Assembly (NCBI GenBank): GCA_041498975.1
Contig: JBGQJI010000026.1
Span: forward strand, 1-25,037
Length of the DNA: 25,037 nucleotides
Direction: 5' to 3'
Source of the DNA: Candidatus Methylomirabilis sp.
GTDB lineage: Bacteria > Methylomirabilota > Methylomirabilia > Methylomirabilales > Methylomirabilaceae
Shown here: positions 1,349 through 21,724 of the stretch, piece after piece
Numbering within the stretch: the first letter of the stretch is position 1
Layout of the letters: each line of letters begins with the position of its first letter
Program-made: the position numbers and the translations under genes
Notes under the pieces: model-generated
Databases searched by the model: none
What the model was told of the DNA's origin: nothing
Seen by the model: the letters and a program-made list of their open reading frames with translations, nothing else

Positions 1349-1349
1349 A

Positions 1350-2624: not shown

Positions 2625-2752
2625 GTTCCAAGTGCCAAGTTCCAGGTTCGCCTTCGCAGTTCCAGATTTCCAGTCCCAGGCTCTAGGTTTGTTAAAGCGC
2701 AACTTGTTGGCACTCTCTTCAACCAGGAACCCGGAACTTGGAACCTGGAACC
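2625..2752. repeat. Heptamer tandem array with inverted arms, (GTTCCAR)n / (YYGGAAC)x4
   Basis: GTTCCAA GTGCCAA GTTCCAG ... CAGGAAC CCGGAAC TTGGAAC CTGGAAC between proB and proA. Confidence 0.85.
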
Positions 2753-2756
2753 ATAT

Positions 2757-3911: not shown

Positions 3912-3920
3912 GAGATTCCC

Positions 3921-4012
3921 CAGTTCATCGTTCGCAGTTCATAGTTCACAGTTTTTTGAACCCGAGCTCTGGAGTTCTGGACCCTGAACTATGAACTCTG
4001 AACCCCGAACTG
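3921..4012. repeat. Heptamer tandem array with inverted arms, (AGTTCAY)n / (MTGAACY)n, overlapping the obgE 3' end
   Basis: AGTTCAT CGTTCGC AGTTCAT AGTTCAC ... CTGAACT ATGAACT CTGAACC CCGAACT. Confidence 0.85.
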
Positions 4013-4997
4013 TCTGGAGCTGTTCGGCCAGATACCGGACGAGGGCCTCGACCCCTTCGCCTGTCACGGCCGACATCGGGAAGAGGGGGATGGCCCGCTC
4101 TGCACAGAGGGCCCTAAGCGCGGGCAGGTAGGTAGCGTGGGGAAGATCGATCTTGTTGGCGGCAATCACGCGCGGCCGCCGGAGAAGCGCAGGATTGTAG
4201 GCTTCAAGCTCTGCCTCGACCACTGACAGGGCGTCCAGCGGATCCCTCGCGTCGTCGGACACATCGATAACATGCACCAACAGACGAGTCCGTTCAACAT
4301 GGCGGAGAAAGCGAACGCCGAGCCCCGCCCCGGCAGCCGCTCCCTTGATCAGTCCAGGAATGTCAGCGACCACCATGGCGCCAAGCGGGTCGATCTCGAT
4401 GGTTCCCAGGTGTGGAGTGAGAGTTGTAAAGGGGTAATCCGCGACCTTCGAATGGGCGGCCGAGATGCGGCAGAGGAGCGCAGATTTTCCGGCGTTGGGG
4501 AGGCCGACTAGGCCGACGTCGGCCAAGAGTTTCAAGGTGAGGTCAAGCAGCCGCTGCTCTCCCTGTTGGCCTGGTTGAGCAATGCGGGGCGCCTGGCGAA
4601 CCGCGGTGGCGAATCGGGCATTGCCTCGGCCGCCCTTCCCTCCTCGGGCGACCAGCACCTGCTCTCCGTCGTGGATCAGGTCTGCTATGAGCACACCCGT
4701 CTCCGCATCCACGACAACGGTACCAAGGGGTACAGGGATGATCAGGTCGGCGCCTCGCCTGCCGTGCATCGTTTTGCCTCGGCCATGCGCGCCGTTTTCC
4801 GCCCGATACTGCCGTTGGTATTTCTGGTCGCTGAGGGTCCGATAAGAACGACTGGCGACGAAAGAGACGCTCCCGCCGTCGCCCCCATCGCCACCGTCTG
4901 GGCCGCCTCGTGGCACATACGCTTCTCGCCGGAAGCTGATGCAGCCGCGGCCGCCGTCCCCTGCCTTGACCTGAATGCGGCCCTCATCGACGAACAT
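3939..4997 (-). CDS. obgE: GTPase Obg/CgtA
   Basis: MFVDE start, Gly-rich Obg fold, G1 GLPNAGKS, G2 YPFTT, G3 DIPG, G4 NKID; follows rpmA. Confidence 0.97.
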
Positions 4998-5009
4998 CGA
5001 GGTAAGGCG

Positions 5010-5264
5010 TCAGACACCCGTAATACTGATGAAGCGACCCTGTCCCCCGCGCCGCTCGATCGTCACGACCCCGGACACCTTGGCGAAAAGGGTGTCGTCC
5101 GAACCGATCCCGACGTTCTTGCCTGGCCTGAAGCGGGTGCCGCGCTGCCGGATCAGAATGCTGCCCGCTGGCACCGTCTGCCCCGCCCCAGCCTTCATGC
5201 CCAACCGCTGACCGGCGCTATCCCGGCCATTGCGGGAACTCCCCATTCCTTTCTTGTGTGCCAT
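5010..5264 (-). CDS. rpmA: 50S ribosomal protein L27
   Basis: [16 protein letters not shown]...IRQRGT...[14 protein letters not shown]. Confidence 0.98.
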
Positions 5265-5278
5265 CGCCTACCTCCAAG

Positions 5279-5347
5279 AGTTGATAGTTCGGAGTTCGGG
5301 GTTCAGAGTTTCCTGTCTATGAACCCTGAACACTGAACCCTGAACCT
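5279..5347. repeat. Heptamer tandem array with inverted arms, (AGTTCGG)n / (CTGAACC)n
   Basis: Occupies most of the rplU-rpmA intergenic region. Confidence 0.85.
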
Positions 5348-5353
5348 TGTCCC

Positions 5354-5665
5354 CTATACCCTGATCTCTGTGATTCGGACTGTCGTTTGCGCCTGTCGGT
5401 GCCCCTGGGTGCGTCGATACCGCTTCCGCCGCTTGAACTTGAAGACGGTGATCTTCGGCCCGCGCCCCTGGCGGACGATCTCGGTCAATACACTGGCGCC
5501 CTGCAGGTACGGGTTCCCTACCTTCACCTGGTCCCCGTCAGCCACCAGCAACACTTTCGAGAGCTCGACCTGGCTCCCGGCCTCCCCCTCGATCCGCTCG
5601 AGCACCACCAGGCCCCCAGGGGCGACCCGACGCTGCTTCCCTCCCGATTCGATTATGGCATACAC
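5354..5665 (-). CDS. rplU: 50S ribosomal protein L21
   Basis: YAIIESGGKQ...KFKRRKRYRRTQGHRQ; GTG start at 5665 with GGAGGGG RBS upstream. Confidence 0.97.
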   Translation of the reverse strand: MYAIIESGGKQRRVAPGGLVVLERIEGEAGSQVELSKVLLVADGDQVKVGNPYLQGASVLTEIVRQGRGPKITVFKFKRRKRYRRTQGHRQAQTTVRITEIRV

Positions 5666-5757
5666 CGTTCGCCCCTCCGGCACTAAGACCAACAAACACG
5701 GAGAGGAGGCTTATGGCCTCCTTCTCCTGTTAAAGAATGACATCGCTATTGAATGAC

Positions 5758-5786
5758 ATTTTAGGCGGCTGCCATCGCTCTGTCAA
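5758..5786 (-). promoter_or_regulatory. Sigma70-type promoter for the rplU operon
   Basis: Minus strand TTGACA-17 nt-TAAAAT, about 90 nt upstream of the rplU start. Confidence 0.8.
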
Positions 5787-5797
5787 GCAGTAAGACA

Positions 5798-5863
5798 TAG
5801 GGTATAGGGTAGAGCGTATAGGGTGTAGAGAGGACCCCCCTGAACCCTACACCCTAAACCCTG
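5798..5863. repeat. Heptamer tandem array with inverted arms, (TAGGGTA)n / (MACCCTA)n
   Basis: TAGGGTA TAGGGTA GAGCGTA TAGGGTG ... AACCCTA CACCCTA AACCCTG. Confidence 0.85.
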
Positions 5864-6089
5864 CTCTCTTCTTGGGGAGCTTTCTCTCCAGGAACAGCGC
5901 TCCCTTGATGACACGGCCATTCGGGGCAATACTCCAGGTGCCGTGTCCCGTGACGGTAAGCTGGATCGGGACCCCGTATCGCTTGGCCTTCTCGAGCAGG
6001 CGTCGGACCAGCGTGTCTGGCCCGTCGTCCGCCTGCCACTCCCCAGAGTATGCCAGGCCGGGCTCGGAACAGAGGATCTCGACCTTCAA
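5847..6089 (-). CDS. Hypothetical protein, 80 aa
   Basis: TTG start directly after the rng stop with a GGAGGGG RBS; no family recognised. Confidence 0.6.
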   Translation of the reverse strand: MKVEILCSEPGLAYSGEWQADDGPDTLVRRLLEKAKRYGVPIQLTVTGHGTWSIAPNGRVIKGALFLERKLPKKRAGFRV

Positions 6090-6090
6090 T

Positions 6091-7626
6091 CTACCCCTCC
6101 AACAACTGATATTTCCCATGCGCCAGAGATTCTTCCGGAACCAGGACGATCTCCCCGCCGTAGGTCTGCTGGAGCGTTTCGATCACTTCGCCATCCTCCG
6201 CCTGGATCCAACTGATCAGGTCGGGGTGGGCCTTGATGCGAACCCGCGGGACCCGCTTGCGGAACAGCCGCCACTCCGCCTCCCGAAGGACCTGATGAGC
6301 GATCGAGGGGGTCGAACGGACGTGGCCGAGTCCACCGCAGGCTGGGCAGGAGGCGCTCAAGGCCTTGTTGAGCCCCTGGCGGACCCGCTTCCGCGTCATC
6401 TCGACCAGGCCTAGTTCCGACAGGAGAGACACATTGGTGGGAGAGCGGTCGGGCTTCAGCGCCTCCTTGAGTTCCTGAAGGACGCGATCCCGACTCTCCT
6501 GCCGAGCCATATCAATGAAGTCGATGATGATGATGCCGCCCAGGTCTCGCAGGCGCACCTGGCGCGCGATCTCCCTGGCCGCTTCCAGGTTGGTTTTGAG
6601 GACCGTCTCCTCAAAATCGTGTTTGCCGACGTACTTCCCCGTGTTGATGTCGATGGAGACCAGCGCCTCCGTCTCCTCCAACACGATGTAGCCCCCTGAT
6701 CTGAGCCAGACCTTGTGTCGCAGCGCCTTCTCGACCTCCCGCTCGATGCCGAACGACTTGTAGATCGGCTCGTCCTCGGTGTAGAGAAACAAGTGGGACT
6801 TCAGGTCCGGGTGCAGCGATTCGGCGTACTCCAGACACCGCTCGTACTCGGTCGGGCTGTCCACCACCAAACGCACCACCTCTTTCGTGAAGAGGTCGCG
6901 AAAGATCCGGAAGATCAGGTCCAGGTCCTTCTGGACCAATGCCGGAGCGGTGTGGGTTTCGGCCTTGCTCTTGATTTTCTTCCAGAGGGATCGGAGAAAC
7001 TCCAGATCAGCCCCGATCTCCGCCTTCCCCTTGCCGATACCGGCGGTCCTGACGATGACCCCCTCGCGCTGCGGATTGATCTCCTCGACGATCTGTTTCA
7101 ACCGTGATCGCTCGCCCTCGTTCTCGATTTTCCGGGAGACGCCGATGTGCTGCTCAGTGGGCATGTACACGAGGTAGCGGCCGGGCAGGGTGATGTGGGA
7201 GGTGATGCGGGCCCCCTTGGTCCCGAGAGGTTCCCGGGCCACCTGAGCCAGGACCTCCTGGCCCTCCTTCAAGAGCTCCTCGATCGCCGCCTGGGGGCGC
7301 CGGCCTCGGCTGAAGCTGGGCCGTGGCTCTTCGGGGGGCGGTTCGCCGCCGGGCTCGCCGTCTTCGCCGAGGTTCAGGAGGCGCTCGTACTCCTCCAGAT
7401 CCTCGAAGATGTCCCGGACGTACAAGAAGGCATCCTTCGCCAGGCCCAGGTCCACGAAGGCGGCCTGCATCCCCGGGAGGATCTTCAGGACGCGCCCCTT
7501 ATAGATGTTGCCGGCGATGCTCTTGTTCTTCGAGTCGTCGATGAGAAGCTCAACCAGGACGCCGTCTTCCAGGACGGCCACCCGGGTTTCCACCATGGAG
7601 GAATTGACGATGATCTCTCGCTTCAT
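6091..7626 (-). CDS. rng: Ribonuclease G (Rne/Rng family)
   Basis: GNIYKGRV..ILPGMQAAFVD S1 domain, catalytic IDINTG and IIIDFIDM, CPACGG Zn-link; 511 aa without a long C-terminal scaffold. Confidence 0.92.
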   Translation of the reverse strand: MKREIIVNSSMVETRVAVLEDGVLVELLIDDSKNKSIAGNIYKGRVLKILPGMQAAFVDLGLAKDAFLYVRDIFEDLEEYERLLNLGEDGEPGGEPPPEEPRPSFSRGRRPQAAIEELLKEGQEVLAQVAREPLGTKGARITSHITLPGRYLVYMPTEQHIGVSRKIENEGERSRLKQIVEEINPQREGVIVRTAGIGKGKAEIGADLEFLRSLWKKIKSKAETHTAPALVQKDLDLIFRIFRDLFTKEVVRLVVDSPTEYERCLEYAESLHPDLKSHLFLYTEDEPIYKSFGIEREVEKALRHKVWLRSGGYIVLEETEALVSIDINTGKYVGKHDFEETVLKTNLEAAREIARQVRLRDLGGIIIIDFIDMARQESRDRVLQELKEALKPDRSPTNVSLLSELGLVEMTRKRVRQGLNKALSASCPACGGLGHVRSTPSIAHQVLREAEWRLFRKRVPRVRIKAHPDLISWIQAEDGEVIETLQQTYGGEIVLVPEESLAHGKYQLLEG

Positions 7627-7693
7627 CGACCGATATTCGCTTTCTCCTCAAATGGGTGGGCTCCCACGCTGTTGCTCGGAAGGCGCAGAAAGC

Positions 7694-10345
7694 TCACATC
7701 GCGCCCTCCAGGACCAGCGCGGTTCTCGCCACACGCAACTTCGTTTCCAATCCATCGACATGACCGTTGAGGGTATCCTTCAGCAGACAAGCCATAATCA
7801 CCTGCGGTCGCACACTGCCGCCCTGTCCCGTTATCAGACGGAGACCCCACCGCAGCGCCCCACCGTCCTCTTGCAAGGTCAGCAGCTCCCGGATCTGCGG
7901 ACGGACATCGACTTCTACGAGCTTGTCCTTCCGCTGAACGCTCACTGGGATGCTGCGCCGGCTCAGCCACTCGTCGCAGACGGACGGGGAATTGAGTCTG
8001 GCTCTGATCTCCGGGGCCGACCCGTTCAGAGACAGCGAGACCTGATAGACGGCCTCCCGAACCGACGATGTCAGAGATGGGGCGGTCACTGCAACCTCCC
8101 ACGCGCGGAGTAACTGCAACTCTGAAGCCATATGCCGATTGACCCGTGCCACAAGCTCCTCAGGGGCTATCGCCAGGCTCAGCTCGATGTCCGCCAGCTC
8201 CTGCCATCCCTCGACGCCCACCGGAAGCGCCAGGGCAAACGAGAGTTTCGGCTGCGGGTTGTACCCTTGAGAGTAGGCGATCGGAACCTGCGCCCGTCGC
8301 AGTGCGCGGCTAACCGCCTTCATCACCTCGAGGTGTGAGAGGAACCGGAGATCGCCCGTCTTTTGGAAAACAAAGCGAATCCGCTGTACCGGAGCTTCGC
8401 TCCGGGTTTCGGGTTTGGGGTTTCGGGTTTCGGGTTCAGCGTTGCAGTTCTGCGTTTCGGGTTTGGGGTTTCGGGTTTCGGGTTTAAGGTTTGGGACTTG
8501 GCACTTGGAACTCGAAACTCCAAACTCGAAACTCGAAACTTTTATTCCCACCTTTTCGGCCCAGGTCGGCCAGTTGGGCATGCAGATCTCGCCGCAGGCC
8601 GAGCAAGGAGCCACGTGGCAGTCTGGCGTCCCCCGGACCTCGAGCGCTTTCTTGTACTCCCGCTGCAAGAACTTCTTGCTGACCCCGATGTCGATGTGAT
8701 CCCAGGGAAGCGGCTCCTCCAAACCGCGGGTCCGATTCGCGATCGCGGCCGGATCGATCCCCGTCTCCTCGAACGCCCGCATCCACCGGTCGAATTTGAG
8801 ATGTTCGGTCCAACCGTCGAACCGGCACCCCAGCTCATACCCCCGATGGATGGCTCGGCCCAGGGAGCGGTCACCCAGGGAGAAGACCGCCTCCAGGAAG
8901 GACGACTGGACATCGTGCCACTTGTACGACACGTTCACCTCTCGCAGCTTTCGTCTCAGGTAGTGTTGCTTCTCCTTGAGAAGGGCCATCGGCTCCTGGG
9001 CGAACCACTGAAACGGCGTGTGCGGCTTGGGAACGAACGAGGACGTGCTGACAGTCAGGCCGAAGCCCCTGACCGCCTCCGCTCGCGCGATGCGCGCCGA
9101 TTCACGCGCGACCCGGACCATCTCGTCCAGATCCTCCTGCGTCTCGGTCGGCAGCCCGATCATGAAGTAGAATTTCACCGACTCCCACCCCGACCTGGCG
9201 GCGTTCCTGACCGCGGTGAAGATCTGCTCCTCGTCAAACCCCTCTTTGTTGATCACCTTTCGAAGCCGTTTGCTCCCGGCCTCGGGCGCGATGGTAAAGC
9301 CGGTCTTCCGGACCCGGCCGATCTCGTCAGCGACCTGCGGGTACCGGTTCAACGCCTCAACGCGGAGCGAGGGGAGCGACAGCGAGATCTTCTCTGGCAG
9401 CAGCTCGTCCATCAAGGGGCGGACCAGGTCGGGAAGGACCGTCAGGTCGGCGATACTCAACGAGGCGAGCGAGACCTCTTCGTACCCCGTCCCCCGAATC
9501 GCCTGCCGGGTCATCTGCCGGATCTCCTCGGCCGATCGCTCCCGCAACGGGCGGTAGAGGTAGCCAGCCTGGCAGAAGCGACATCCCTGCGTGCAGCCCC
9601 GCATCACCTCGATATTGGCCCGGTCGTGGACGATCTCCATGAACGGGACCGGGAAGGCGCCGTAGTCGATCCCGCCGAGCAGGATCGCCGTCCGCTTGCG
9701 GATCGTCTCGCCACGGTGTCGCGCCGGGACATAGCAGCCCTGGATCTTCGTCCAGGCCTCAAGCAGCTCTTCGCGCCGGCCGCCGGATTCCTTCCATCGC
9801 ACGAATGCCTCACAGATCTCGAGGATCGCCTCCTCGGCATCACCGAGCAGGAAGAGGTCGATGAAATCGGCGATCGGCTCGGGATTGAAGGCGACGGGAC
9901 CACCCGCGATGACGAAGGGATCCCCTTCGCGCCGCTGCTCGCTCCTCAACGGGATGCCGGCCAAGTCCAGCATATTGAGGATGGTCGTGTAGGAGAGTTC
10001 GTACTGCAGCGTGAAGCCGATCAGGTCGAAATCGGCGAGGCTGTAGCCGGACTCCTGGCTGCACAGTGGAATTCCCCGGTCCCGAAGCAACTTTTCGGCA
10101 TCCACCCATGGCGCATAGACCCGCTCCGCCAGAAACTCAGGCCGCCGGTTCAGGATCTGATAGAGGATCTTCAGCCCCAAATGGGACATGCCGATTTCGT
10201 AGGTATCGGGAAACGCGAGGGCGATCCTGACCTTCGCGCGGGATGGGTCCTTCCTGATGGCGTTCCACTCCATCCCGATGTATCGGGACGGCTTACCGAC
10301 CAAAGGGAGGATCTCATCCACGATCGCTTGCCGATAGCTCTGCAT
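7694..10345 (-). CDS. TIGR03960-type B12-binding radical SAM protein fused to a TIGR03936/DUF2344-type C-terminal domain
   Basis: KPSRYIG.E.N, FPDTYEIGMSHLG, CTQGCRFC (CxxxCxxC), FVPKPHTPFQW; C-terminal LRFLSHLE...YSQGYNPQPK. Usual position upstream of rne/rng. Start set to ATG 10345 (GGAG RBS). Confidence 0.88.
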   Translation of the reverse strand: MQSYRQAIVDEILPLVGKPSRYIGMEWNAIRKDPSRAKVRIALAFPDTYEIGMSHLGLKILYQILNRRPEFLAERVYAPWVDAEKLLRDRGIPLCSQESGYSLADFDLIGFTLQYELSYTTILNMLDLAGIPLRSEQRREGDPFVIAGGPVAFNPEPIADFIDLFLLGDAEEAILEICEAFVRWKESGGRREELLEAWTKIQGCYVPARHRGETIRKRTAILLGGIDYGAFPVPFMEIVHDRANIEVMRGCTQGCRFCQAGYLYRPLRERSAEEIRQMTRQAIRGTGYEEVSLASLSIADLTVLPDLVRPLMDELLPEKISLSLPSLRVEALNRYPQVADEIGRVRKTGFTIAPEAGSKRLRKVINKEGFDEEQIFTAVRNAARSGWESVKFYFMIGLPTETQEDLDEMVRVARESARIARAEAVRGFGLTVSTSSFVPKPHTPFQWFAQEPMALLKEKQHYLRRKLREVNVSYKWHDVQSSFLEAVFSLGDRSLGRAIHRGYELGCRFDGWTEHLKFDRWMRAFEETGIDPAAIANRTRGLEEPLPWDHIDIGVSKKFLQREYKKALEVRGTPDCHVAPCSACGEICMPNWPTWAEKVGIKVSSFEFGVSSSKCQVPNLKPETRNPKPETQNCNAEPETRNPKPETRSEAPVQRIRFVFQKTGDLRFLSHLEVMKAVSRALRRAQVPIAYSQGYNPQPKLSFALALPVGVEGWQELADIELSLAIAPEELVARVNRHMASELQLLRAWEVAVTAPSLTSSVREAVYQVSLSLNGSAPEIRARLNSPSVCDEWLSRRSIPVSVQRKDKLVEVDVRPQIRELLTLQEDGGALRWGLRLITGQGGSVRPQVIMACLLKDTLNGHVDGLETKLRVARTALVLEGAM
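8403..8541. repeat. Intragenic heptamer array with inverted arms, (GGGTTTC)x~10 / (AAACTCG)n
   Basis: Lies in-frame in the radical SAM gene and encodes VSSFEFGVSS...PETRNPKPET...PETRNPKPETR. Confidence 0.92.
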
Positions 10346-10580
10346 CGGGGACTCCGTATTCGCGGAAGGGCCACACAGCATCGGGCAGATCATACACCAT
10401 GGCCGACTGCAACGCAATCCCAACGCCCCTCAGCATAAGTGGCTCTCAGCCCGTATGAAACTCCGCTGGGAATCCCCTCCGGTGCGCTCAAGGGGGCAAT
10501 GGGGCGGACGATCACAGCAAGCCGGCAGGTCTCTAAGAGCTTGGTTGAAGAGGACGGGTCAGCGTCCGCTGAACCCGCGC

Positions 10581-12129: not shown

Positions 12130-12159
12130 TTGACAGGCATTGAGGCTTTCTGCTATACA
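12130..12159 (+). promoter_or_regulatory. Sigma70-type promoter upstream of riboswitch 1
   Basis: TTGACA (12130-12135), 18-nt spacer, extended -10 TGcTATACA; the predicted start site falls just before the aptamer. Confidence 0.65.
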
Positions 12160-12169
12160 GGCTGGTAGA

Positions 12170-12235
12170 TAGAGGCGATGGAGTTCGTCGCGTAAACTAT
12201 CCCGACGTGATACTCGGGATTGATAACTCCTACTG
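12170..12235 (+). ncRNA. Fluoride riboswitch (crcB motif) 1
   Basis: GGCGATGGAGTTCGTC-gcgTAAACt-ATCCCGA/TCGGGAT-TGATAACTCCTAC. P1 GGCG/CGTC, P2 of 7 bp, pseudoknot GGAGTT(12180-85)/AACTCC(12225-30). Fits the known consensus. Confidence 0.93.
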
Positions 12236-12266
12236 AAGCGTTCCTTTGGTAGGAGTTTTTGTTTTT
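12225..12266 (+). terminator. Riboswitch 1 expression-platform terminator
   Basis: 14-bp stem AACTCCTACTGAAG/CTTTGGTAGGAGTT (2 G-U pairs), 5-nt loop, then TTTGTTTTT; its 5' arm is the pseudoknot strand. Confidence 0.9.
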
Positions 12267-12282
12267 CGAGGGGTTGGTCAGA

Positions 12283-13191
12283 ATGGATGGCGGTGCCAAG
12301 GCAGCTCGTTCCAAATCCGTGAGCTACTTCGAGCTGCTGGACGCGTTCAAGGAGGAAGGCTGCCCGGTCTGCCGACTCCTGCTCAAGTGGAGTCGCTTAT
12401 ACCTAGACTCGCTCTTTTACGAATACGTCAATGACGTCGGGGTCCGCAGCCGCCTTCGTGATTCTCATGGCTTCTGCAACTGGCACACCTGGATGGCTGC
12501 CAGCATTGACAACAGCCAGTCGGGGATCGCCATCATCTACGAACACCTGCTCAAGGATCAAATTGAGAGGTTTCAGGACGCACTGAGGTTCATCAAGCCT
12601 AGGTATTGGTGGGGGCGACTCAGGGGAAAGTGGTTCCGAGTCAAGGGCAAGCCACCGATTTTCGCTCAACGGAATCAAAGATCACCATGCCCGGCATGCG
12701 AGCGCCTGGATCAGTTCTTTGAACCTGACCTGACCGACACGCTCCTGTCCTCTTTGGCCGACCCGGAGTTCGCCGACGGCTTCGTCGTTTCCTTCGGCCT
12801 CTGCCTGCCTCACCTCTACAACACCATGGTCACAGGCCAAGAGCATCCCAATCTTCCCCTTCTCATGGAGCTTCAACTGAAGAAATTGGGAACGCTTCGC
12901 GGTGAACTCGGTGAATACATCCGGAAATTAGATTACCGGTTCATGGCCGAACCGCGCGGAGAAGAGGCCACTTCCTGGCGACGCGTCATGGAGCTATTCG
13001 TCGGCAAGCCAGAGGTTTTTGGCTCGGACCGCCGGACGTGGGACACGACAGCGGGCCGACAGCCAACGCCATCATCCACAACGCCCCTCCAAGGTCAGGG
13101 TCTGGGACCGGCCAAGAGGAAGGGGGAAAAGGCTGAACAGTTCCGCAAGGACCTTCTGCCCCCGCGCAAAGGGATGTGGGAGGGTTCTTGA
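12283..13191 (+). CDS. DUF6062-like protein 1
   Basis: CPVC...YEYVND..VR..LR.S.GFCNWH, CPAC...GLCLPH, EL.EYIRKLDYRF..EP.GEE..SW.R. ATG 12283 follows GAGGGG; the track's TTG start lies inside the terminator tail. Confidence 0.8.
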   Translation: MDGGAKAARSKSVSYFELLDAFKEEGCPVCRLLLKWSRLYLDSLFYEYVNDVGVRSRLRDSHGFCNWHTWMAASIDNSQSGIAIIYEHLLKDQIERFQDALRFIKPRYWWGRLRGKWFRVKGKPPIFAQRNQRSPCPACERLDQFFEPDLTDTLLSSLADPEFADGFVVSFGLCLPHLYNTMVTGQEHPNLPLLMELQLKKLGTLRGELGEYIRKLDYRFMAEPRGEEATSWRRVMELFVGKPEVFGSDRRTWDTTAGRQPTPSSTTPLQGQGLGPAKRKGEKAEQFRKDLLPPRKGMWEGS

Positions 13192-13227: not shown

Positions 13228-14409
13228 GTGGAGAACGCATGGATTGGAATGGTGATGGGCCTGCTGATCCTTCTGGCAAGCATGGCCTCGGTGGAACTGG
13301 GGATCTCGGTCGCCCTGATCGAGATCGGTTTTGGCATCGTCGCCGGGAACTTTTTGGGTCTGCACTCCACCCCATGGATCGACTTTCTGGCCAGCTTCGC
13401 CAGCATCGTGCTGACCTTCCTGGCCGGCGCCGAGGTCGATCCCGACCTCATGCGGGAGAAGCTGAAAGAAAGCGCCCTTATCGGTGGACTCTCCTTCCTT
13501 CTGCCGTTCTTTGGAACGTGGGCCTTTTGCTACCTCGTTGTGGGCTGGACCAAGGCGGCATCGCAAATCGCTGGCACCGCACTTTCGACCACCTCGCTCG
13601 CCGTGGTCTATGCCGTGCTGGTCGAGACGGGACTCACCAACGCGCCGATTGGCAAACTGATCATGGCATCAACGTTCGTAACAGACTTTGGAACCGCGCT
13701 CGCCTTGAGCCTCCTGTTCATCCGGCCTACCTGGTGGATCGTCCCATTCATCCTAGTCTCTGCAGCGTTGATCGTCATCATGCCCCGAATGAAACCCTGG
13801 TTCTTTTCGCGCTACGGCAAACGAGTCATCGAGCCCGAAATTAAAGGCGCCTTTGCCGCGCTTCTTGTCTTGATGTACTTCGCTCATCTGGCTGAAAGCC
13901 ATGCTGTCCTGCCGGCCTTCATCCTCGGCCTGGCGGTCGCGAAGATTTTTCACAGCCACAGAGAGGAACAACGGCGCTTCCGAATCGTGACCTTTGCCAT
14001 GCTGACGCCGTTCTTTTTTACCAAGTCCGGGATGAACGTGTCATTGGGTCTCGTGTGGGCCAACACCGGGCTACTGCTGATGCTACTTGCAGTGAAGCAA
14101 ATCACGAAGTTCATCGGCGTTTACCCGTTTGCGAAACGTTATGTCGCGGAACACGCGATGTACACCACCCTCCTGATGAGCACGGGCCTAACCTTTGGCA
14201 CCATCGCTTCGCTTTTCGGGCTGAACGCCGGCATCCTCACCAAAGCACAGTTCTCAGTTCTGGTCACGGTCGTCATCCTGAGCGCCATTATTCCCACAAT
14301 GATTGCCCAGCGCTATTTCGATCCCAGACGTCCCCTCAAACGGGCCGAGGAAGCGCCAAGGGCTGCTATGATTAGGCCCCCTCAACTGCTCGAGGAAAAA
14401 GGGGCGTAA
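13228..14409 (+). CDS. Cation:proton antiporter (CPA2 / Na_H_Exchanger family)
   Basis: About 12-13 hydrophobic segments; FLAGAEVD, LSTTSLAVV, FVTD, PFFF..SGM motifs; AAGGAG RBS with GTG start. Confidence 0.88.
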   Translation: MENAWIGMVMGLLILLASMASVELGISVALIEIGFGIVAGNFLGLHSTPWIDFLASFASIVLTFLAGAEVDPDLMREKLKESALIGGLSFLLPFFGTWAFCYLVVGWTKAASQIAGTALSTTSLAVVYAVLVETGLTNAPIGKLIMASTFVTDFGTALALSLLFIRPTWWIVPFILVSAALIVIMPRMKPWFFSRYGKRVIEPEIKGAFAALLVLMYFAHLAESHAVLPAFILGLAVAKIFHSHREEQRRFRIVTFAMLTPFFFTKSGMNVSLGLVWANTGLLLMLLAVKQITKFIGVYPFAKRYVAEHAMYTTLLMSTGLTFGTIASLFGLNAGILTKAQFSVLVTVVILSAIIPTMIAQRYFDPRRPLKRAEEAPRAAMIRPPQLLEEKGA

Positions 14410-14832
14410 ATGTACCAGAGGATCCTCGTCGCCTACGACGGCTCCGAGGGCTCGAAGAAGGCCCTTCGAGCCGGCATTAAGCTGGCCAAGCTGCTGGAGG
14501 TGGACTTGTATTCGATTTCTGTAGCGGAGGGGCTTCCCTACTTTGCCGCGACCGTGGGCGAGGTCGAAGAGGTCAAGGACGACGTCGAGGCGTTTTTCAA
14601 GAAGATCACCAAGGAGGCCTGGGACGAGGCAGCGCTTCAGGGCGTGAACCTCCACACAACGGTCCTCCCCGGCCACGAGGTGGAGACCATCATCACCTTC
14701 GCGAAGGAAGGCCGGTTTGATCTATTGATCGTCGGATTCGTGGGTCATTCCAATGTGTTCGGGCGCATTATGGGAGGCACCACCCAAAACCTGAGCCGAC
14801 TGTCTCCCTGCACGGTGATGATCGTCAAATAG
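14410..14832 (+). CDS. Universal stress protein (UspA family)
   Basis: MYQRILVAYDGSEGS..AL, DLLIVG..G......IMGGTT..L....PCTVMIVK; starts immediately after the antiporter stop. Confidence 0.93.
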   Translation: MYQRILVAYDGSEGSKKALRAGIKLAKLLEVDLYSISVAEGLPYFAATVGEVEEVKDDVEAFFKKITKEAWDEAALQGVNLHTTVLPGHEVETIITFAKEGRFDLLIVGFVGHSNVFGRIMGGTTQNLSRLSPCTVMIVK

Positions 14833-14886: not shown

Positions 14887-15234
14887 ATGCCAATTGATAG
14901 GCCATGGCTGCTATTTTCCGAGATTGCTATCAATCTTGAGCAAGACGAATCGGGTGTCTACGAGTTAGGGAACAGGACTGGCAGTGTCATATACCTAGGG
15001 AGTTCAAGCAGAGTGCGCCAACGGCTGAAAGAACACCTGAATGCTTGGAGCACGACGTGTCTCAAAAAGCACACAGCGAAGTACCGGGTAGAATACACGT
15101 CAAAGTTCAAGGCTAGAGAATGGGAGTTATATGACCAGCACGTGAGGTCACATAGCAAACCTCCTAGATGTAATGCCGCGCGCGAATTTCCGTCCTCCAG
15201 ACTTTCTGAAGCTGAAATCAAATCAGGACACTAG
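14887..15234 (+). CDS. Stand-alone GIY-YIG nuclease-like protein
   Basis: GVY-x10-YLG, then VRQRLKEH and a downstream ARE.EL helix. Confidence 0.7.
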   Translation: MPIDRPWLLFSEIAINLEQDESGVYELGNRTGSVIYLGSSSRVRQRLKEHLNAWSTTCLKKHTAKYRVEYTSKFKAREWELYDQHVRSHSKPPRCNAAREFPSSRLSEAEIKSGH

Positions 15235-15248
15235 CCGATTAAGACATC

Positions 15249-15800
15249 ATGGAAACCTCGCAGCAAGCCCGGGCCGTGGCGATCACGCTGCAGCCCTGTA
15301 TCTATCGGGCCGAACGTCCCTCTCAAAGTGCTGACGGCGGTTCCGGAGGAGTCGCTCTGACCTGCAAGGCCATGGGAGGGAAGAGCCTCGGCCGAAAAGG
15401 CCAGGACGATGTCCGGATCGCCGAGATCTGTAACCCTTGTACCATCCCTCAGGAGGCCGCGTTCCGGCCTTGCCTTTTCCTGGTCCCGATCAAAGTAGAA
15501 CGGAAACGGGTTCTCAAAGACTACTTTACTTGCCGCTGGTTGTACCGGCTTCGTCCCGACCGACCGGATGAGAAGACCCGATACATGTGCGCCGGCTGCC
15601 CTTTCTGGTTCCCAATGCCACCGGTCTCGCTGGTCCGCGACTTGGAGCAGGCTGCGAAGAAGATGATCGACTACCATGCACAAATCTGGGAGAACCCTCC
15701 GCCCCCGCCACCCAAGCTCATCTGGATTCAGAGGCCGCCGGCACCGAGAACGCTATGGCAACGGACACGCGATTCGCTGATTCGGTGGTGGGGATGGTGA
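15249..15800 (+). CDS. Hypothetical Cys-rich protein (8 Cys)
   Basis: Co-oriented with short gaps to both neighbours; two C..C..CxxC modules and a Pro-rich then Trp-rich C-terminus. Confidence 0.65.
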   Translation: METSQQARAVAITLQPCIYRAERPSQSADGGSGGVALTCKAMGGKSLGRKGQDDVRIAEICNPCTIPQEAAFRPCLFLVPIKVERKRVLKDYFTCRWLYRLRPDRPDEKTRYMCAGCPFWFPMPPVSLVRDLEQAAKKMIDYHAQIWENPPPPPPKLIWIQRPPAPRTLWQRTRDSLIRWWGW

Positions 15801-15831
15801 CCCACCGGGAAAGCGAGAGGGAGTGGGAGGT

Positions 15832-16584
15832 ATGAGCTTTGCCCTGCTTTCCATCGAGCTGGAGGACGCGCTCCAAAGCCAGGGGTGCGCCGTTTGCCGC
15901 CTCGTCCAGGAGGGTGACCAGCGTTACATTCGTCACTTCCTCTGGGAAGGGAAAAACGAGGGCCATATGCTCCTCAGGCTCAAACGCTCGCTCGGCCTCT
16001 GCCACCATCATGCTTGGTTGCTGGCCGATACCGAAGACCTGGAGTTCAAGGATGGGTTGGGAACAGCGACCCTGTACGATTGGCTGCTTGACATCGCGCA
16101 TGAGACCCTCCGGAAGGCGCGGGAGACCCGCACCATCGAGGCGGCGAAACGACTGGCTACATCGTTGCACCCACAACCCCCCTGCCCTGCATGCGCCATC
16201 CGCCGCGAGTTTGCGGAGACGGTCCTGTGGGGCCTGCAGCAATTTCTCGCGCCCGTGGGAGGTCATGAGACGATCAGGAACCTGTATGCCAAGTCAGGCG
16301 GCCTTTGCTTGCCTCATCTCCTGGCTCTCCTCCGGATGACCTCCTTCCCGGAGGTCGTGCAGCTATTGCTGGAGGTGCAGGAGCGGACGCTGGCATCCCT
16401 CCTCGCGGAACTGGAACTGTTCCAGCGCAAGCACCGGGTCGGCGAGCAAGCACCGATCGGCAAGGAACAGGACGCGTGGAACCGCGCCCTCGATCTGCTC
16501 GCTGGACGCCTAAACGGCGCCCGACCACCGGGTGTTGCGAACTCACAGGTGAATCGCACATCGAGGATGGTGGCTGAAGGCTGA
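15832..16584 (+). CDS. DUF6062-like protein 2
   Basis: CAVC...GLCHHH, CPAC...GLCLPH, EL..F.RKH...E.DAW.RA; GGAGG RBS just before ATG 15832. Confidence 0.8.
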   Translation: MSFALLSIELEDALQSQGCAVCRLVQEGDQRYIRHFLWEGKNEGHMLLRLKRSLGLCHHHAWLLADTEDLEFKDGLGTATLYDWLLDIAHETLRKARETRTIEAAKRLATSLHPQPPCPACAIRREFAETVLWGLQQFLAPVGGHETIRNLYAKSGGLCLPHLLALLRMTSFPEVVQLLLEVQERTLASLLAELELFQRKHRVGEQAPIGKEQDAWNRALDLLAGRLNGARPPGVANSQVNRTSRMVAEG

Positions 16585-16616
16585 AGTGCCGGTGCCCGCA
16601 TCTCGCCGGTATCCTG

Positions 16617-17354
16617 ATGTCGCTGCACTTACTCTATAGCCGCTGGAGAGCGGCACTCACCCAGGCGGGGTGTCCGGCCTGCCGGATCATGGAGGCTGTG
16701 GCCCGGAGGTACATGATCACGCTCGTCCGTGAAGGGAAAAGCCACGACGAGGTGTACATACGGATTCAGAGGGCGTGGGGCTTTTGTGAGGGGCACGGCC
16801 GAATGCTGAAAGGGATCAGCCCGGCGAAGCTTGGTGATGGGATGAGTCCGGCGCGACTGTGCTCCTGGCTATTAGGGGCCCTGAGTATGCGGCTGTCCAA
16901 GGCGTTGCAGTCCACCAGGACCTCGTTGTCGCCGAGGATTCAAGGGCGCCGATGGCTCAGGAGAAAGAGACCTCCTGGCGAAGGAATCGCCAAACAGCTC
17001 GAAGTCGAAGGGCGCTGCCCGGCTTGTGAAGATCTCACCAGGTATGAGCGAAGCCTGTTATGGGGCCTTCAGCGCCTTCTTTCAGAGACCAAAGGGGAAG
17101 AGACGATCCGACACTTATATCATGCCTCTCATGGTCTCTGCTTCCCGCACCTCCGCCTCGCTCTCGAAGAGGCGGAGGAACCGTCGTCGGTCGATCTGCT
17201 CCTCCAGGTTCAAGAGCAGGCACTCTCCGACCTTTCCTGGAACCTGAAGGAGTATCTTCGGAAGCATGATTACCGCTACAGGCTTGAGCCGATGACGCAG
17301 GCAGAAGCCACGAGTTGCCTTCGGGCAATCGCCTTGTTCGCGGGGGAGCGATAG
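16617..17354 (+). CDS. DUF6062-like protein 3
   Basis: CPAC...GFCEGH, CPAC...GLCFPH, LKEYLRKHDYRY..EP. Confidence 0.8.
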   Translation: MSLHLLYSRWRAALTQAGCPACRIMEAVARRYMITLVREGKSHDEVYIRIQRAWGFCEGHGRMLKGISPAKLGDGMSPARLCSWLLGALSMRLSKALQSTRTSLSPRIQGRRWLRRKRPPGEGIAKQLEVEGRCPACEDLTRYERSLLWGLQRLLSETKGEETIRHLYHASHGLCFPHLRLALEEAEEPSSVDLLLQVQEQALSDLSWNLKEYLRKHDYRYRLEPMTQAEATSCLRAIALFAGER

Positions 17355-17483
17355 GTGAGCCTCCGCGTGATCGCCGACCCGCGCATCATTCCGGCGGCGC
17401 TGGAGATTGTCACACGGAAGCCTTTGGACCACCCAATCTGTGAGTGTAGTGGTTGTTGTGCGGCGAGGGTTGTTTGCGGATGA
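17355..17483 (+). CDS. Possible 42-aa Cys-rich small protein (below the ORF-track cutoff)
   Basis: GTG directly after the upstream TAG, with a GGGGAG RBS; MSLRVIADPRIIPAALEIVTRKPLDHPICECSGCCAARVVCG; its stop overlaps the next start as ATGA. Confidence 0.35.
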   Translation: MSLRVIADPRIIPAALEIVTRKPLDHPICECSGCCAARVVCG

Positions 17484-17956
17484 ACGCGCAAGATGGTCAG
17501 CCGGTGCTGCTCAATCCCTCGCAGAAGAATTCACTTCGCATCAGCTTGCTGCTGGTGGAGAGGGGGATGCTCGAAATGGAGCGCCTCCTGTCCGCTGGCG
17601 AATACCATGGGATCCTGTTCCGGATTACGGATGATCTTGGTGACGACACGAAGACAGCCATTGGGCAGCTTATCCACGAGGTTCGGGGGGTCATCCGGGA
17701 GCTGAGGGACCGGTTTCAACTTGACCTGGAGGCTGAAAGAACGAGTCGCGCCATCTTCGGGAAGGCTCCTTTGCTCTGGGAGATCGTGACAGATAGCGAC
17801 ACCAGCCGCCTGCGAGGATACGGACAGGTCCAGCCAGGTTTGAAAGAGATCCTGGACCCCTCAATCGAGCGACTGAGTCAATCCTTGCTGAGAATGCATG
17901 GCTTGGTTTCTAACAACGATAGAGCGTTCACGCGGGATCGGGGCGGTGAACAGTAG
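17480..17956 (+). CDS. Hypothetical all-helical protein with an RLRGYG motif
   Basis: LN.SQKNSLRISL...RLRGYG; amphipathic helices; ATG at 17480. Confidence 0.7.
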   Translation: MNAQDGQPVLLNPSQKNSLRISLLLVERGMLEMERLLSAGEYHGILFRITDDLGDDTKTAIGQLIHEVRGVIRELRDRFQLDLEAERTSRAIFGKAPLLWEIVTDSDTSRLRGYGQVQPGLKEILDPSIERLSQSLLRMHGLVSNNDRAFTRDRGGEQ

Positions 17957-17974
17957 AATTCTCTCGGTGAGCAG

Positions 17975-18037
17975 ATTAGGCGATGGGGTTCGCCATTAAC
18001 CATCCCGATGGCCACGTCGGGATTAATGACCCCTATC
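17975..18037 (+). ncRNA. Fluoride riboswitch (crcB motif) 2
   Basis: GGCGATGGGGTTCGCC-ATTAACC-ATCCCGA/TCGGGAT-TAATGACCCCTAT. P1 GGCG/CGCC, pseudoknot GGGGTT(17985-90)/GACCCC(18028-33). Confidence 0.94.
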
Positions 18038-18070
18038 AAAGGTTCCAGCCCTTGATAGGGGTTTTCTTTT
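18028..18070 (+). terminator. Riboswitch 2 expression-platform terminator
   Basis: Perfect 11-bp stem ACCCCTATCAA/TTGATAGGGGT followed by TTTCTTTT; overlaps the pseudoknot strand. Confidence 0.9.
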
Positions 18071-18084
18071 GAGAGGTTTTGGCC

Positions 18085-18474
18085 GTGAGCAGGAGGCGTC
18101 CAACTGCCGACGAGCGCAACGCCATTGGGGTGTACCTCAGCGGTCGCGGGGCGCATGATCTCGCCATCAGCGAACTGAAGAAAGCAAGGCGGCTAGCTCC
18201 AGGGTCGCCAACCGTCCACTACAACTTGGCGGCCGCCTACTTCGGGAAGAGGGATTTCGATCAAGCCTTCTCGGCTCTCAAGGTGGCCCTGGACCGGGAT
18301 CCCCAACATCTGAATGCCCACCTCCTGCTCGGGCTCGTGCTTGAGGCCAAGGGGTTGTACGATGAGAGCCGCCGGGAGCTTCAATGGGTCGTCGAGCAAG
18401 ACCCCGTGAGCAGAAGCGGCCAAGAAGCTAAGGAAGCGCTGGTCAATCTTGAATCGAGAATGGCCAGACGGTAA
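18085..18474 (+). CDS. Tetratricopeptide repeat protein
   Basis: Three TPR-like units (NAIGV..., VHYNLAAAYF....FDQA, AHLLLGLVL...G.YDES); GAGAGG RBS 8 nt before GTG 18085. Confidence 0.85.
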   Translation: MSRRRPTADERNAIGVYLSGRGAHDLAISELKKARRLAPGSPTVHYNLAAAYFGKRDFDQAFSALKVALDRDPQHLNAHLLLGLVLEAKGLYDESRRELQWVVEQDPVSRSGQEAKEALVNLESRMARR

Positions 18475-18670
18475 GGGGAGATCCCCAACGAACACGAGCT
18501 GTCCCGTGAGCAGATGCTGCCGAAGAGGTGCTTGTTATGTGCACCTGCCGCCGCGTTGCGCTCACCCTCCGCTCGGCCTCGACAACTGGAGAAAGGAATG
18601 TGATAGTCGATCATCAAACCGATCCGGCTGCACGTAGATCGACGGAACCTGACATGATAATGAGGCCAGG

Positions 18671-19960
18671 ATGGCACTAATTTCCAAGATTAGTGCGCGT
18701 GAGGTGCTCGATTCCCGCGGGTACCCCACCATCGAAGTCGAGGTTGTGCTCGAGGACGGTGCGCTTGGCAGAGCTTCGATTCCCGCAGGAGCCTCCACCG
18801 GCAAAATGGAAGCCATGGAGCTTCGCGACGGTGAGAAAGGACGATATCTAGGCAAAGGTGTCAGACGAGCGGTCACGATCGTGACCGAGGTTCTGGCCCT
18901 GAAACTCCTGGGGCTGGAGGCGCACGATCAACCGCTCATCGACAGAACGATGATCGACCTGGATGGGACTCCAAACAAATCGAGATTGGGGGCCAATTCG
19001 ATCCTGGGGATTTCCCTTGCGGTCTCAAAGGCCGCTGCCACGTCTGACGGCGTTCCCCTCTTCAAATACCTCGGAGGTCCGGACGCAAAGGTCATGCCGG
19101 TCCCGATGATGAACGTGATCAATGGGGGACGACACGCTGATAATACCCTGGACTTTCAAGAGTTCATGATTGTCCCACTTGGGGCGCCTCGGTTTTCGGA
19201 CGCCTTGCGGGCAGCGGTTGAGACCTTCCACTCCTTAAAGGAGGTTCTGAAGAGTGCGGGATACGGGACGACAGTCGGCGATGAAGGTGGATTCGCACCG
19301 CGCCTCCGAACGCACGATGAGGCCATCGAATTGATCCTCGCTGCGATCACGAAGGCCGGATTCAAGGCGCCAGGCGAGGTAGCCATTGCCCTCGATCCAG
19401 CCGCCAGCGAATTTTTCAACGACGGTGTGTACAGATTCGAGAAGTCCGACCGATCGAGAAGAGACGCCGAGGGCATGGTAAGGCTGTATGATGACCTCGT
19501 TCGCCAGTATCCGATCGTCTCCCTTGAAGACGGGCTGGCAGAGACCGATTGGCGGGGGTGGGAGATCTTAACGAGGGAGCTTGGGGACAGGCTTCAACTG
19601 GTGGGGGATGACATTTTTGTCACCAACCCCGCCCTCATCGCTGAAGGCATCCGGAAAAAGGTCGCCACTGCGGTCCTCATCAAATTGAACCAGGTTGGGA
19701 CCGTGACGGAAACCCTGCAAGCCGTGCGAGTTGCCCAAGGCGCCGGATATGGGGTCGTGATCTCCCACCGCTCGGGCGAGACCGAGGATACCGCCATCGC
19801 GGACTTCGCGGTGGCCTGCCAAAGCGGACAGATCAAGGCAGGGTCTGCATGTCGTACAGACCGCGTCGCCAAATACAATCAACTGCTCCGCATCGAGGAG
19901 CAGTTGGGACCGGAAGCGGTGTTCCTTGGGCCCAGGATATTCTCCAGGTATGTTGCCTGA
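18671..19960 (+). CDS. eno: Enolase (phosphopyruvate hydratase)
   Basis: [62 protein letters not shown] all present. Confidence 0.97.
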
Positions 19961-19974
19961 GAGGATGATGGTGC

Positions 19975-21675
19975 ATGATCTTCTACTGTCCCTCGTGTTG
20001 GCGTGAGGTGCCCGAAACTGTCCGGGTGTGTCCACATTGCATGGTGGATGTGGAGCGCCTCACCCAAGAACAAGATTACGTCCAGAAGCTGATCGCTGCC
20101 CTTGACCATCCCGAGCCCCAGACACCCATCCGGGTGGCCTGGATTCTCGGCTTCCGGAAGGAAACGCACGCGGTCGCCGATTTAGCCCGGCTCGTCCGTG
20201 AATCAGATGATCCATATATCGTCGAGGCAGCCGTGGAGGCGCTCGGGAGGATCGGGGATCCGGCGGGCCTGGCGGCCGTCCGATTTGCCTCGCAGCACGG
20301 GGGGGTGAGGGTCCGCGAGAGGGCCAAGTATGCCATCGATCTCATTGAGGGGATACCATCCGTCCCTCACGAGGAGCCGACCTCAAAGCGGGAGCAATCA
20401 ACCAACCGAACTAGCGATCCCCTCCCACCCGTACGACTTGATCCGACGGAGTCGGCCCGATCCGAAGGGTGGCTGAACCGGAACGTTGTGGGGATGGGGG
20501 TGACCAGCCTTCTGTCCGATGCATGCCACGAGATGGCCACCGCTGTCCTTCCAAGCTTCCTGACGAGCATCGGTGCGCCGGCGGCGGCTCTTGGCGTGAT
20601 TGAGGGCGTGGCGGACGCCACCAGCAGCTTCGTCAAGTTGGGGGCCGGCTGGTACTCTGACCGAATCGGCCATCGCAAGGGGATCTGCATCCTAGGCTAC
20701 TTCCTGACCGGCGTCTCCAAGGCGCTGTTCGCGTTCGCTATCACCTGGCCCTTGGTGCTCGTCGGCCGAGTCATCGGCTGGTTCGGCCGCGGCATTCGCG
20801 GGCCCCTGCGGGATGCCATGCTAGCGGAGTCTGTCCCGCCGGAAGCGAGGGGAAAAGCCTTCGGATTCCACAGGGCCGGCGACACGTTGGGCGCCATCAT
20901 CGGCCCGCTCCTTGCGGTCGGAGTCATCGAAATGCTCCAGGCCCGTGGTGTGCAGGACTCGTCGGCCCCGTTTCGGACGGTCTTCCTCCTCACGCTGATT
21001 CCGGGGTTGGCCTCGGTTCTCACGATGGCAAGCCTGGTCCGGGAACGGCGCCGCCTGCCCAATCACGACCTTCGGTTCTGGGCCTCGCTCAGGGAACTCC
21101 CAAAGAGGTTCCGCCGCTTCCTTCTGGGCGTCGGCCTCTTCGGCCTCGGCGATTATGCCCACACTTTCTTGATCCTCGCCGCCACCACCCTCCTTACCCC
21201 TGCATACGGGCTCGTCGAAGCCGCGCAGATCGCCGCGCTCCTCTATGTGTGGCGGAACGTCCTCTATGCCGCCGCCTCTTATCCGGTGGGCGCCCTGAGC
21301 GACCGTGTGGGACGACGAGGTCTGCTCGCTCTCGGCTATCTCCTTGGGGCCGTGACCGCCGGCGGCTTCGGGCTTGCGTTTCTCATCCCTCTTCCCGCTC
21401 TCTCGAAACTGGCCGTGCTGGTTTGCCTCTTTGCGACGGCAGGCATCTATATTGCCATGGAGGACACGCTTGAAGGAACGCTGACAGCCGACCTGACTCC
21501 ACGAGAAACCTGGGGTCTCTCGCAAGGCGTCCTCGGCACGATCAATGGGGTCGGCGACTTCGTTGCCAGCCTTGTTGTTGGGATCTTGTGGTCTGCCGTC
21601 TCTCCCATGGCGGCCTTTGGCTACGCTGCCCTTCTCTCTCTCCTCGGCACCGCGCTCATCTATCGACTACGATGA
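19975..21675 (+). CDS. MFS transporter with N-terminal Zn-ribbon and HEAT-repeat domains
   Basis: CPSC-x10-CPHC, then HEAT units (VEAAVEALGRIGD), then an MFS body from about residue 165 with motif A twice (GWYSDRIGHRK, GALSDRVGRR) and RGKAFGFHRAGD. Confidence 0.88.
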   Translation: MIFYCPSCWREVPETVRVCPHCMVDVERLTQEQDYVQKLIAALDHPEPQTPIRVAWILGFRKETHAVADLARLVRESDDPYIVEAAVEALGRIGDPAGLAAVRFASQHGGVRVRERAKYAIDLIEGIPSVPHEEPTSKREQSTNRTSDPLPPVRLDPTESARSEGWLNRNVVGMGVTSLLSDACHEMATAVLPSFLTSIGAPAAALGVIEGVADATSSFVKLGAGWYSDRIGHRKGICILGYFLTGVSKALFAFAITWPLVLVGRVIGWFGRGIRGPLRDAMLAESVPPEARGKAFGFHRAGDTLGAIIGPLLAVGVIEMLQARGVQDSSAPFRTVFLLTLIPGLASVLTMASLVRERRRLPNHDLRFWASLRELPKRFRRFLLGVGLFGLGDYAHTFLILAATTLLTPAYGLVEAAQIAALLYVWRNVLYAAASYPVGALSDRVGRRGLLALGYLLGAVTAGGFGLAFLIPLPALSKLAVLVCLFATAGIYIAMEDTLEGTLTADLTPRETWGLSQGVLGTINGVGDFVASLVVGILWSAVSPMAAFGYAALLSLLGTALIYRLR

Positions 21676-21724
21676 GGTCCTCCGAAGGGGTCAACAGGCA
21701 GCGCGCTCGATACGGACCACTGCG

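Follow-up and report, generated by a model that had tools for sequence, protein, structure and literature searches.

A DUF6062 protein is the first gene behind a fluoride riboswitch in the window, the 25,037-nucleotide stretch of Candidatus Methylomirabilis sp. that we analyzed, and this arrangement of switch and first gene recurs in genomes from several phyla. DUF6062 in first place is a recurrent pattern, more general than this locus. It is this position of DUF6062 that is new, as the switch itself and a cargo of antiporter, enolase, phosphatase, and universal stress protein (USP) are already known. We consider it very probable, from comparative sequence analysis, that DUF6062 belongs to the fluoride response, and the explanation that we favor as a whole, with good but lesser confidence, is that a read-through switch leads to production of DUF6062 as an accessory protein of membrane machinery. 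Features of the switches and of the genes behind them are all on the plus strand.

The Rfam covariance model for fluoride riboswitches (RF01734) places an aptamer at 12165-12239, with its core at 12174-12233, and switch 1 matches the whole model (model positions 1-64) at 38.3 bits (E 1.9e-7), above the gathering score of 34. A second aptamer at 17970-18042 scores 43.3 bits, also above the cut-off of 34, and a search of the genome found no fluoride aptamers beyond these two. From the sequence, the Rfam model, and the aptamer alignment, canonical P1 of switch 1 (region 12174-12189) would be formed by 12174-12177 with 12186-12189, where four pairs are possible, the second being G-U, and its loop carries the 5' pseudoknot strand (12180-12185). 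Folding gives a second aptamer stem of 7 pairs (12199-12205 with 12214-12220, -9.6 kcal/mol). The conserved 3' tract at 12221-12233, seen in the sequence and the alignment, contains the 3' pseudoknot strand (12225-12230), which makes six Watson-Crick pairs with 12180-12185, and also A12223 and U12231 at the linchpin positions. Both linchpin columns are invariant across 27 aptamers, and as we mapped the positions here, A12223-U12231 would correspond to the A40-U48 linchpin in B. cereus numbering.

An intrinsic terminator at 12225-12266 was found by terminator scan, folding, and the comparison of 7 aligned leaders. It has a 14-pair stem (12225-12238 with 12244-12257, 2 of the pairs G-U, -17.1 kcal/mol), a 5-nt loop, and a U-tract running to 12266. 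Its 5' arm holds all six bases of the 3' pseudoknot strand plus the linchpin-position U12231. The initial annotation had proposed that the pseudoknot strand AACTCC doubles as the 5' arm of a 14-bp terminator and that the two structures are mutually exclusive, as in characterized switches; 12225-12230 do open the 14-pair stem, and the shared bases 12225-12231 match the overlap described in the sections covered of 10.1101/2023.12.05.570056. The hairpin region has a fold z-score of -4.59, and 0 of 200 shuffles were as stable. In the 7 close aligned leaders 99% of terminator cells are paired, with modest covariation (24 of 500 shuffles were equally high). A simple terminator scan performed about at chance, with 13 found versus 11.1 expected, and the case for this terminator stands on the fold z-score, the overlap, and conservation, not on that scan. 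We have hardly any doubt about the aptamer-terminator architecture as described.

Between the terminator and the gene lies a ribosome-binding-like GAGGGG (12268-12273), and the DUF6062 ATG is at 12283, 16 nt after the end of the U-tract, which is the distance that the initial annotation had given. Upstream of the aptamer, a putative sigma-70-like promoter can be read at 12130-12159, consisting of TTGACA, an 18-nt spacer, and TATACA with a preceding TG of the extended -10 type. Promoter-like elements are similarly placed in six related aligned leaders. Our consensus promoter scan, which demands T as the last -10 base, did not report TTGACA-18-TATACA. The promoter-like elements of the window (12130-12159) and of loci L031, L036, L038, L040, and L207-L212 mostly lack the final -10 T, and TG often stands just 5' of the -10 in these same leaders.

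The design of switch 1 is well conserved in its order. The order gave 29 aptamer hits, of which 27 were aligned and two, weak or partial, were omitted. In this alignment 97.4% of the P1 and pseudoknot cells are paired, versus 42-57% in every slid control, and 5 of these pairs show changes on both sides. For the pseudoknot alone, 100% of the cells are paired across the 27 aptamers and 2 pairs changed on both sides. A terminator arm matching the pseudoknot strand before a U-rich tail was found in 99 of 120 distinct aptamers, among which the three segments (the two pseudoknot strands and the terminator arm) change together across sequence variants. Fifteen of the 29 order hits score under the Rfam cut-off, and because so many aptamers fall below it, the link with DUF6062 would be hidden from routine annotation.

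Switch 1 is an ordinary member of a well-studied class, with a textbook design. The six-pair pseudoknot strand forms the terminator base in tested switches (as described in part of 10.1101/2023.12.05.570056), an A-U linchpin locks the fluoride-bound state (in the part of PMC8752731 that treats it), and terminators overlapping the motif were already noted in the available part of PMC2864571. Like the switches of B. cereus and Thermotoga petrophila, switch 1 has the P1 segments, a second stem, a six-pair pseudoknot, the linchpin positions, and a terminator base made of the 3' pseudoknot strand. Unlike them, it carries a G-U pair in P1 with a competing register, has U-A rather than G-U at pseudoknot position 1, and is followed by DUF6062 as first gene; also in contrast to those systems, neither CrcB nor CLC was found in the window's genome (85% complete, with the contig ending inside the gene block).

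The weak point of this copy is P1. With U at 12188, the second P1 pair is a G-U wobble and a shifted hairpin of six pairs becomes possible, which by folding would pair 12175-12180 with 12186-12191. This predicted competitor has -8.4 kcal/mol, versus -3.8 (4 pairs) or -6.0 (5 pairs) for canonical P1, and would bury the conserved loop bases A12178, U12179, and G12180. In local nested folds of short windows, which take in neither the pseudoknot nor Mg2+, the canonical P1 probability of switch 1 is 0.004-0.01, joint lowest of the 120 aptamers (median 0.99), and that of the second switch (17970) is 0.98. A rough estimate for the pseudoknotted switch 1 aptamer, ignoring Mg2+ and tertiary contacts, comes to -5.2 kcal/mol, about 3 kcal/mol behind the competing hairpin. 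Because of the G-U wobble and the competing hairpin, switching of switch 1 may be weak. The wobble, the competing hairpin, and the antiporter as next gene are points that the initial annotation did not contain.

One reading of these values is that switch 1 is a weakened or mostly OFF copy, in which the shifted hairpin beats P1 and the terminator wins at most fluoride levels, so that the genes behind it are little expressed or are transcribed from another promoter. The energy of the competing hairpin and the low canonical P1 probability speak for this, as do relatives at 60-67% protein identity, which keep the canonical C at the wobble position. Nested folding, however, cannot score the pseudoknot or Mg2+, and the nearest relative (75% protein identity; L207 and L208, with identical leaders) shares the wobble yet has its promoter, pseudoknot, linchpin, and terminator intact, with a changed loop in the second stem, which fits continued selection. 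We regard a mostly OFF copy as unlikely, both in its switching and in its consequence for expression, and expect that this copy probably switches usefully, if with less assurance than we hold for the explanation as a whole. Pseudoknot position 1 of switch 1 is U-A, the commonest pair at that position (65 of 120 aptamers). Hertz et al. found that a G-U wobble was needed there and that G-C failed; U-A is not among the pairs tested in the sections covered (10.1101/2023.12.05.570056). In a screen of 1901 variants, most transcriptional variants scored nonfunctional with E. coli polymerase, according to the available part of PMC12667848.

The first gene (12283-13191) encodes a protein of 302 aa. The initial annotation had called it a DUF6062-like protein of unknown function rather than a transporter. 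It is in fact a full member of PF19538 (DUF6062), with 69.3 bits, E 4.4e-19, and a match to profile positions 8-238 of 243 (cut-off 27 bits). The rest of the description stands for this gene but not for the second, which is an antiporter beginning 36 nt past the DUF6062 stop. The protein is a tandem repeat, each half with a CxxC...CxxH core that we defined from the present alignment and not from the Pfam description (C27, C30, C65, and H68; C136, C139, C174, and H177). These eight Cys/His positions are kept in 101-102 of 102 homologs and suggest two zinc sites. Also conserved, beside the Cys/His sets, are E47, R55, E211, R214, K215, D217, Y218, R219, and R234 (93-102 of 102), and a basic conserved helix lies near the C-terminus. 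The repeats are joined by a Trp/Arg-rich linker with a median net charge of +5.5 and 5.1% Trp, versus 1.8% elsewhere; as a basic Trp-rich element it belongs to the near subfamily, with Trp in 65 of 102 homologs. Such a linker suggests a helix at the membrane surface. Sequence analysis found no transmembrane-like segment in DUF6062.

DUF6062 models as an all-helical protein with good confidence (pLDDT 85 for the whole protein, 93 for one repeat). Neither the whole model nor one repeat had a Foldseek match at E <= 0.001, and VIA-align gave no Z >= 5 among 48,161 chains, its best being Z 4.3 for the whole model (rmsd 6.1, 100 aligned) and Z 4.5 for one repeat (rmsd 4.4, 71 aligned). These fold searches without a match do not show a new fold. 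A profile search of PDB sequences turned up nothing beyond a CxxC coincidence (E 1.8). DUF6062 had no match in PHROGs or PADLOC, and no DNA-binding family match in Pfam or NCBIfam. In the ESM Atlas there was no usable match to the window protein outside DUF6062, and for a homolog all rows shown were DUF6062 clusters. Prediction of a complex between a DUF6062 homolog and the adjacent dynamin-like GTPase (L030) returned "no answer" with a score of 0.00, which is evidence neither way.

Since the covariance model built from the order's aptamers missed most Chloroflexota variants, aptamers near DUF6062 genes were instead detected by a pairing-rule scan with shuffled and opposite-strand controls. 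In the best 80 of 488 genome loci, chosen by likeness to the window DUF6062 protein, an aptamer lies within 170 nt upstream of DUF6062 in 28, a number that rises to 31 within 330 nt, and a compact aptamer occurs within 8 kb on the same strand in 43. The titles of these genome loci include Methylomirabilota, Thermodesulfobacteriota, Nitrospinota, Verrucomicrobia, Chloroflexota, and Spirochaetota. Among 80 of 84 metagenome loci an aptamer was found within 300 nt upstream in 29, and 41 aptamer hits were on the strand of the gene versus 1 on the opposite strand. Shuffled DNA yielded 0-1 compact hits per 969 kb, or about 1 motif per megabase. The locus sets overlap, are partly redundant, and contain kin, and the counts are not independent events. 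One spirochaete aptamer directly before DUF6062 (L059:7793-7969) has a 149-nt middle region, with pseudoknot and terminator kept.

When genes were sampled by Pfam match only, an aptamer stood near 8 of 23 in Spirochaetota, near 5 of 7 in a small phylum, and near 3 of 30 in Chloroflexota, for which the 30 top scorers out of 58 genomes were used. As so few of these Chloroflexota genes have an aptamer, part of the DUF6062 family is unswitched. All four DUF6062 proteins of the window pass the curated Pfam cut-off. The five spirochaete members with the best Pfam scores make up a branch of their own, none of them with an aptamer within 0.9-1.5 kb. A quick tree, from which four duplicates had been dropped, has 137 rows (44 switched, 86 unswitched, seven unlabeled), and on it the switch-first label requires 23 changes by raw count. 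Switched and unswitched branches both occur in DUF6062, with switched members widely spread. The window DUF6062 groups nearer to Nitrospinota and Thermodesulfobacteriota homologs than to those of its own order, with weak support, and a bin titled "Clostridia" groups with Aerophobota.

Within the window's order (61 genomes), an aptamer is present in 15 of the 16 genomes with DUF6062 versus 4 of the 45 without, and 3 of these 4 have CrcB. DUF6062 (16 genomes) and CrcB (11) never occur together in the order, a split that largely follows genus. We reject a strict replacement of CrcB by DUF6062, as 2 of 5 outside genomes with DUF6062 also have CrcB; CrcB moreover directly follows DUF6062 in 4 of 29 metagenome loci. 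CLC proteins at the top 20 order loci have GREGP wherever the scan matched (18 of 20 loci), a sequence that we take to differ from the CLC-F motif. The gene next after DUF6062 varies and may be another DUF6062, an antiporter, CrcB, enolase, a phosphoesterase, or MoxR. Among the aptamer-bearing loci, whose flanks are often short, a dynamin-like gene is found in 6 of 46 and an antiporter in 10 of 46, and with so few dynamin-like genes we reject an obligate partnership of DUF6062 with dynamin. DUF6062 is also found second or later, as tandem pairs, and as two-domain fusions. It is likely to be a true fluoride-response member, given its first place after such switches in many separate branches, with a varying set of later genes. 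MoxR AAA ATPase cassettes adjoin DUF6062 behind fluoride switches in Chloroflexota and Thermotogota (L065, L073, L080, and L102). L043:5409-6941, L046:3189-4808, L051:259-1896, and L060:8593-10863 comprise fusions of two DUF6062 domains (511-546 aa) and one DUF6062-enolase single ORF. The fusions hint at pairing of paralogs, although single cases could be assembly errors.

In the window, the genes behind the switches look like an island, because in four genus relatives the similarity ends at position 10420. Before this point lies what we take to be a minus-strand housekeeping block (93-10423: rsfS, nadD, proA, proB, obg, rpmA, rplU, Rne/Rng, and a radical SAM protein), and the gene of a 407-aa lectin-like protein follows at the island edge. 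A genus relative has a short, roughly 70-nt repeat (L205:91-174) that matches at least 12 contigs of the window's genome. The limits of promoter and operon given here are those that we infer from the sequence. The presumed first unit starts with DUF6062 and continues with the antiporter (13228-14409, CPA2-like, PF00999 by Pfam/NCBIfam), a USP found by domain search (14410-14832), and a further stretch (14887-17956, gaps of 14-122 nt) with a small GIY-YIG protein, two further DUF6062 paralogs matched by Pfam (15823-16584 and 16617-17354), and two unknown proteins with no Pfam match, of 183 aa (15249-15800) and 159 aa (17477-17956). Homologs of both of the latter recur in other fluoride loci.

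The second riboswitch, with its own overlapping terminator (17970-18070; Rfam, terminator scan, and fold), starts 14 nt past the preceding stop codon. It has a stronger canonical fold than switch 1 and G-U at pseudoknot position 1. TAGAAT occurs at 17954-17959 with no clear -35, and this switch may have its own promoter or may gate read-through in series with switch 1. Behind it (18079-25037) follow a TPR protein, a second enolase, a Zn-ribbon/HEAT module joined to an MFS transporter in one ORF (19975-21675, by domain search), a HEAT protein, a PAP2 phosphatase, the fourth DUF6062 (23357-24169, by Pfam), and, directly after it, a dynamin-like GTPase truncated at the contig end (24178-25037). 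The genome's four DUF6062 genes all lie inside the island, and its enolase is a second copy, 66% identical to the enolase on another contig. The GTPase has a weak likeness to LeoA/LeoBC models, and in 5 of 55 genome cases an aptamer is followed first by a dynamin-like GTPase. In other fluoride loci (L043, L051, and L092) the Zn-ribbon/HEAT protein has a small gene of its own; it occurs in 9 of 46 aptamer-bearing loci, fusions counted, and is a candidate for another unnamed member of the fluoride regulon. An antiporter of the type at 13228-14409 is the leading gene after the aptamer in 4 of 55 cases from genomes and 7 of 41 from metagenomes, and this type is a candidate fluoride exporter in genomes in which no CrcB was detected.

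Antiporters, enolase, and phosphatases are known classes of the fluoride regulon (PMC11139923, in part), and USP, enolase, and phosphoglycerate mutase are known cargo as well (PMC5533749, in part). The closest parallel is the fluoride operon of Enterobacter cloacae FRM, given as ppaC-uspA-eno-gpmA-crcB-orf5249 in the available part of PMC5533749. There, too, as far as that part describes it, a fluoride riboswitch governs a genomic island whose first gene is not for a transporter and which includes a USP and an enolase. The window island differs from the operon so described in having two switches in series, four DUF6062 paralogs, an antiporter, an MFS transporter, and a dynamin-like GTPase, and in that crcB was not found.

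We propose that switch 1 works as a transcriptional ON switch, by analogy with characterized members of its class. In the absence of fluoride, the terminator would start to form in its upper stem and advance through U12231 into the pseudoknot, so that the transcript would end near 12266. When fluoride and Mg2+ are present, the pseudoknot would be held in place by the A12223-U12231 linchpin, as in the tested B. cereus switch, and a rise in fluoride would lead to read-through into DUF6062, the antiporter, and the genes beyond. Fluoride binding and read-through at switch 1 are thus expected from kinship with such switches. DUF6062 would be a non-transport member of the fluoride response, a two-zinc helical protein that docks on the inner face of the membrane by its basic Trp-rich linker and there supports membrane machinery stressed by fluoride, namely the antiporter and the dynamin-like GTPase. 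This accessory role at the membrane, suggested by linker composition and gene neighborhood, is tentative, though it is the role that we prefer.

Slightly less likely, and doubtful in our view, is a soluble DUF6062 that senses metals or thiols or acts as an enzyme, has no membrane partner, and is over-produced because fluoride disturbs the metal balance or poisons DUF6062 itself, as it does enolase. The charged residues conserved near the Cys/His sets would suit such a protein, as would the variable next gene and the stand-alone unswitched copies common in Chloroflexota, but sequence and fold searches found no likeness to a known enzyme, and the presence of four paralogs in one island is easier to reconcile with a structural or partner role than with a single activity. 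Its first position before varying cargo, the basic helix near the C-terminus, and the predicted zinc sites could also be those of a regulator at the head of the operon that acts on the genes downstream or on the transcript itself. We think this improbable, given that no DNA-binding family was matched in Pfam or NCBIfam, that the riboswitch already supplies control, and that DUF6062 occurs in later positions, in tandem, and fused. Least probable of all is that DUF6062 is a passenger in a mobile cassette for fluoride, in which the antiporter and enolase do the useful work. The island is indeed absent from this site in the four genus relatives, DUF6062 is found in 0 of 19 other genus members, and the weakly supported placement of the window protein outside its own order would fit transfer with such a cassette; against this, the junction of switch and DUF6062 is kept across phyla despite different pseudoknot sequences and cargo.

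In a literature search that reached few subscription papers, we found no paper on DUF6062 (PF19538), and hence no published function, fold, or regulon, and none on DUF6062 as cargo of a fluoride switch. The searched literature likewise held no paper on a fluoride riboswitch with dynamin or on one in Methylomirabilis. The gene tables of Baker et al. 2012 may contain proteins of this kind as hypothetical entries. Eight supplements of PMC2864571, which predate the family name, contain neither "dynamin" nor "DUF6062".

Fluoride riboswitches have pointed before to unknown genes of fluoride protection, and here they point to a widespread family without a name, fold, or function. The copy at switch 1 offers a natural test of whether a shifted P1 register tunes the sensitivity of a switch. 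A defense that does not depend on an exporter, if true, would bear on the engineering of fluoride-tolerant hosts for organofluorine degradation, which the available part of PMC11139923 lists as a need. More speculatively, and unlikely as we rate it from sequence comparison, DUF6062 may head a so far undescribed branch of fluoride defense, as a zinc protein of unsolved fold that would organize the antiporter and the dynamin-like GTPase at the membrane and so give resistance without Fluc or CLC-F.
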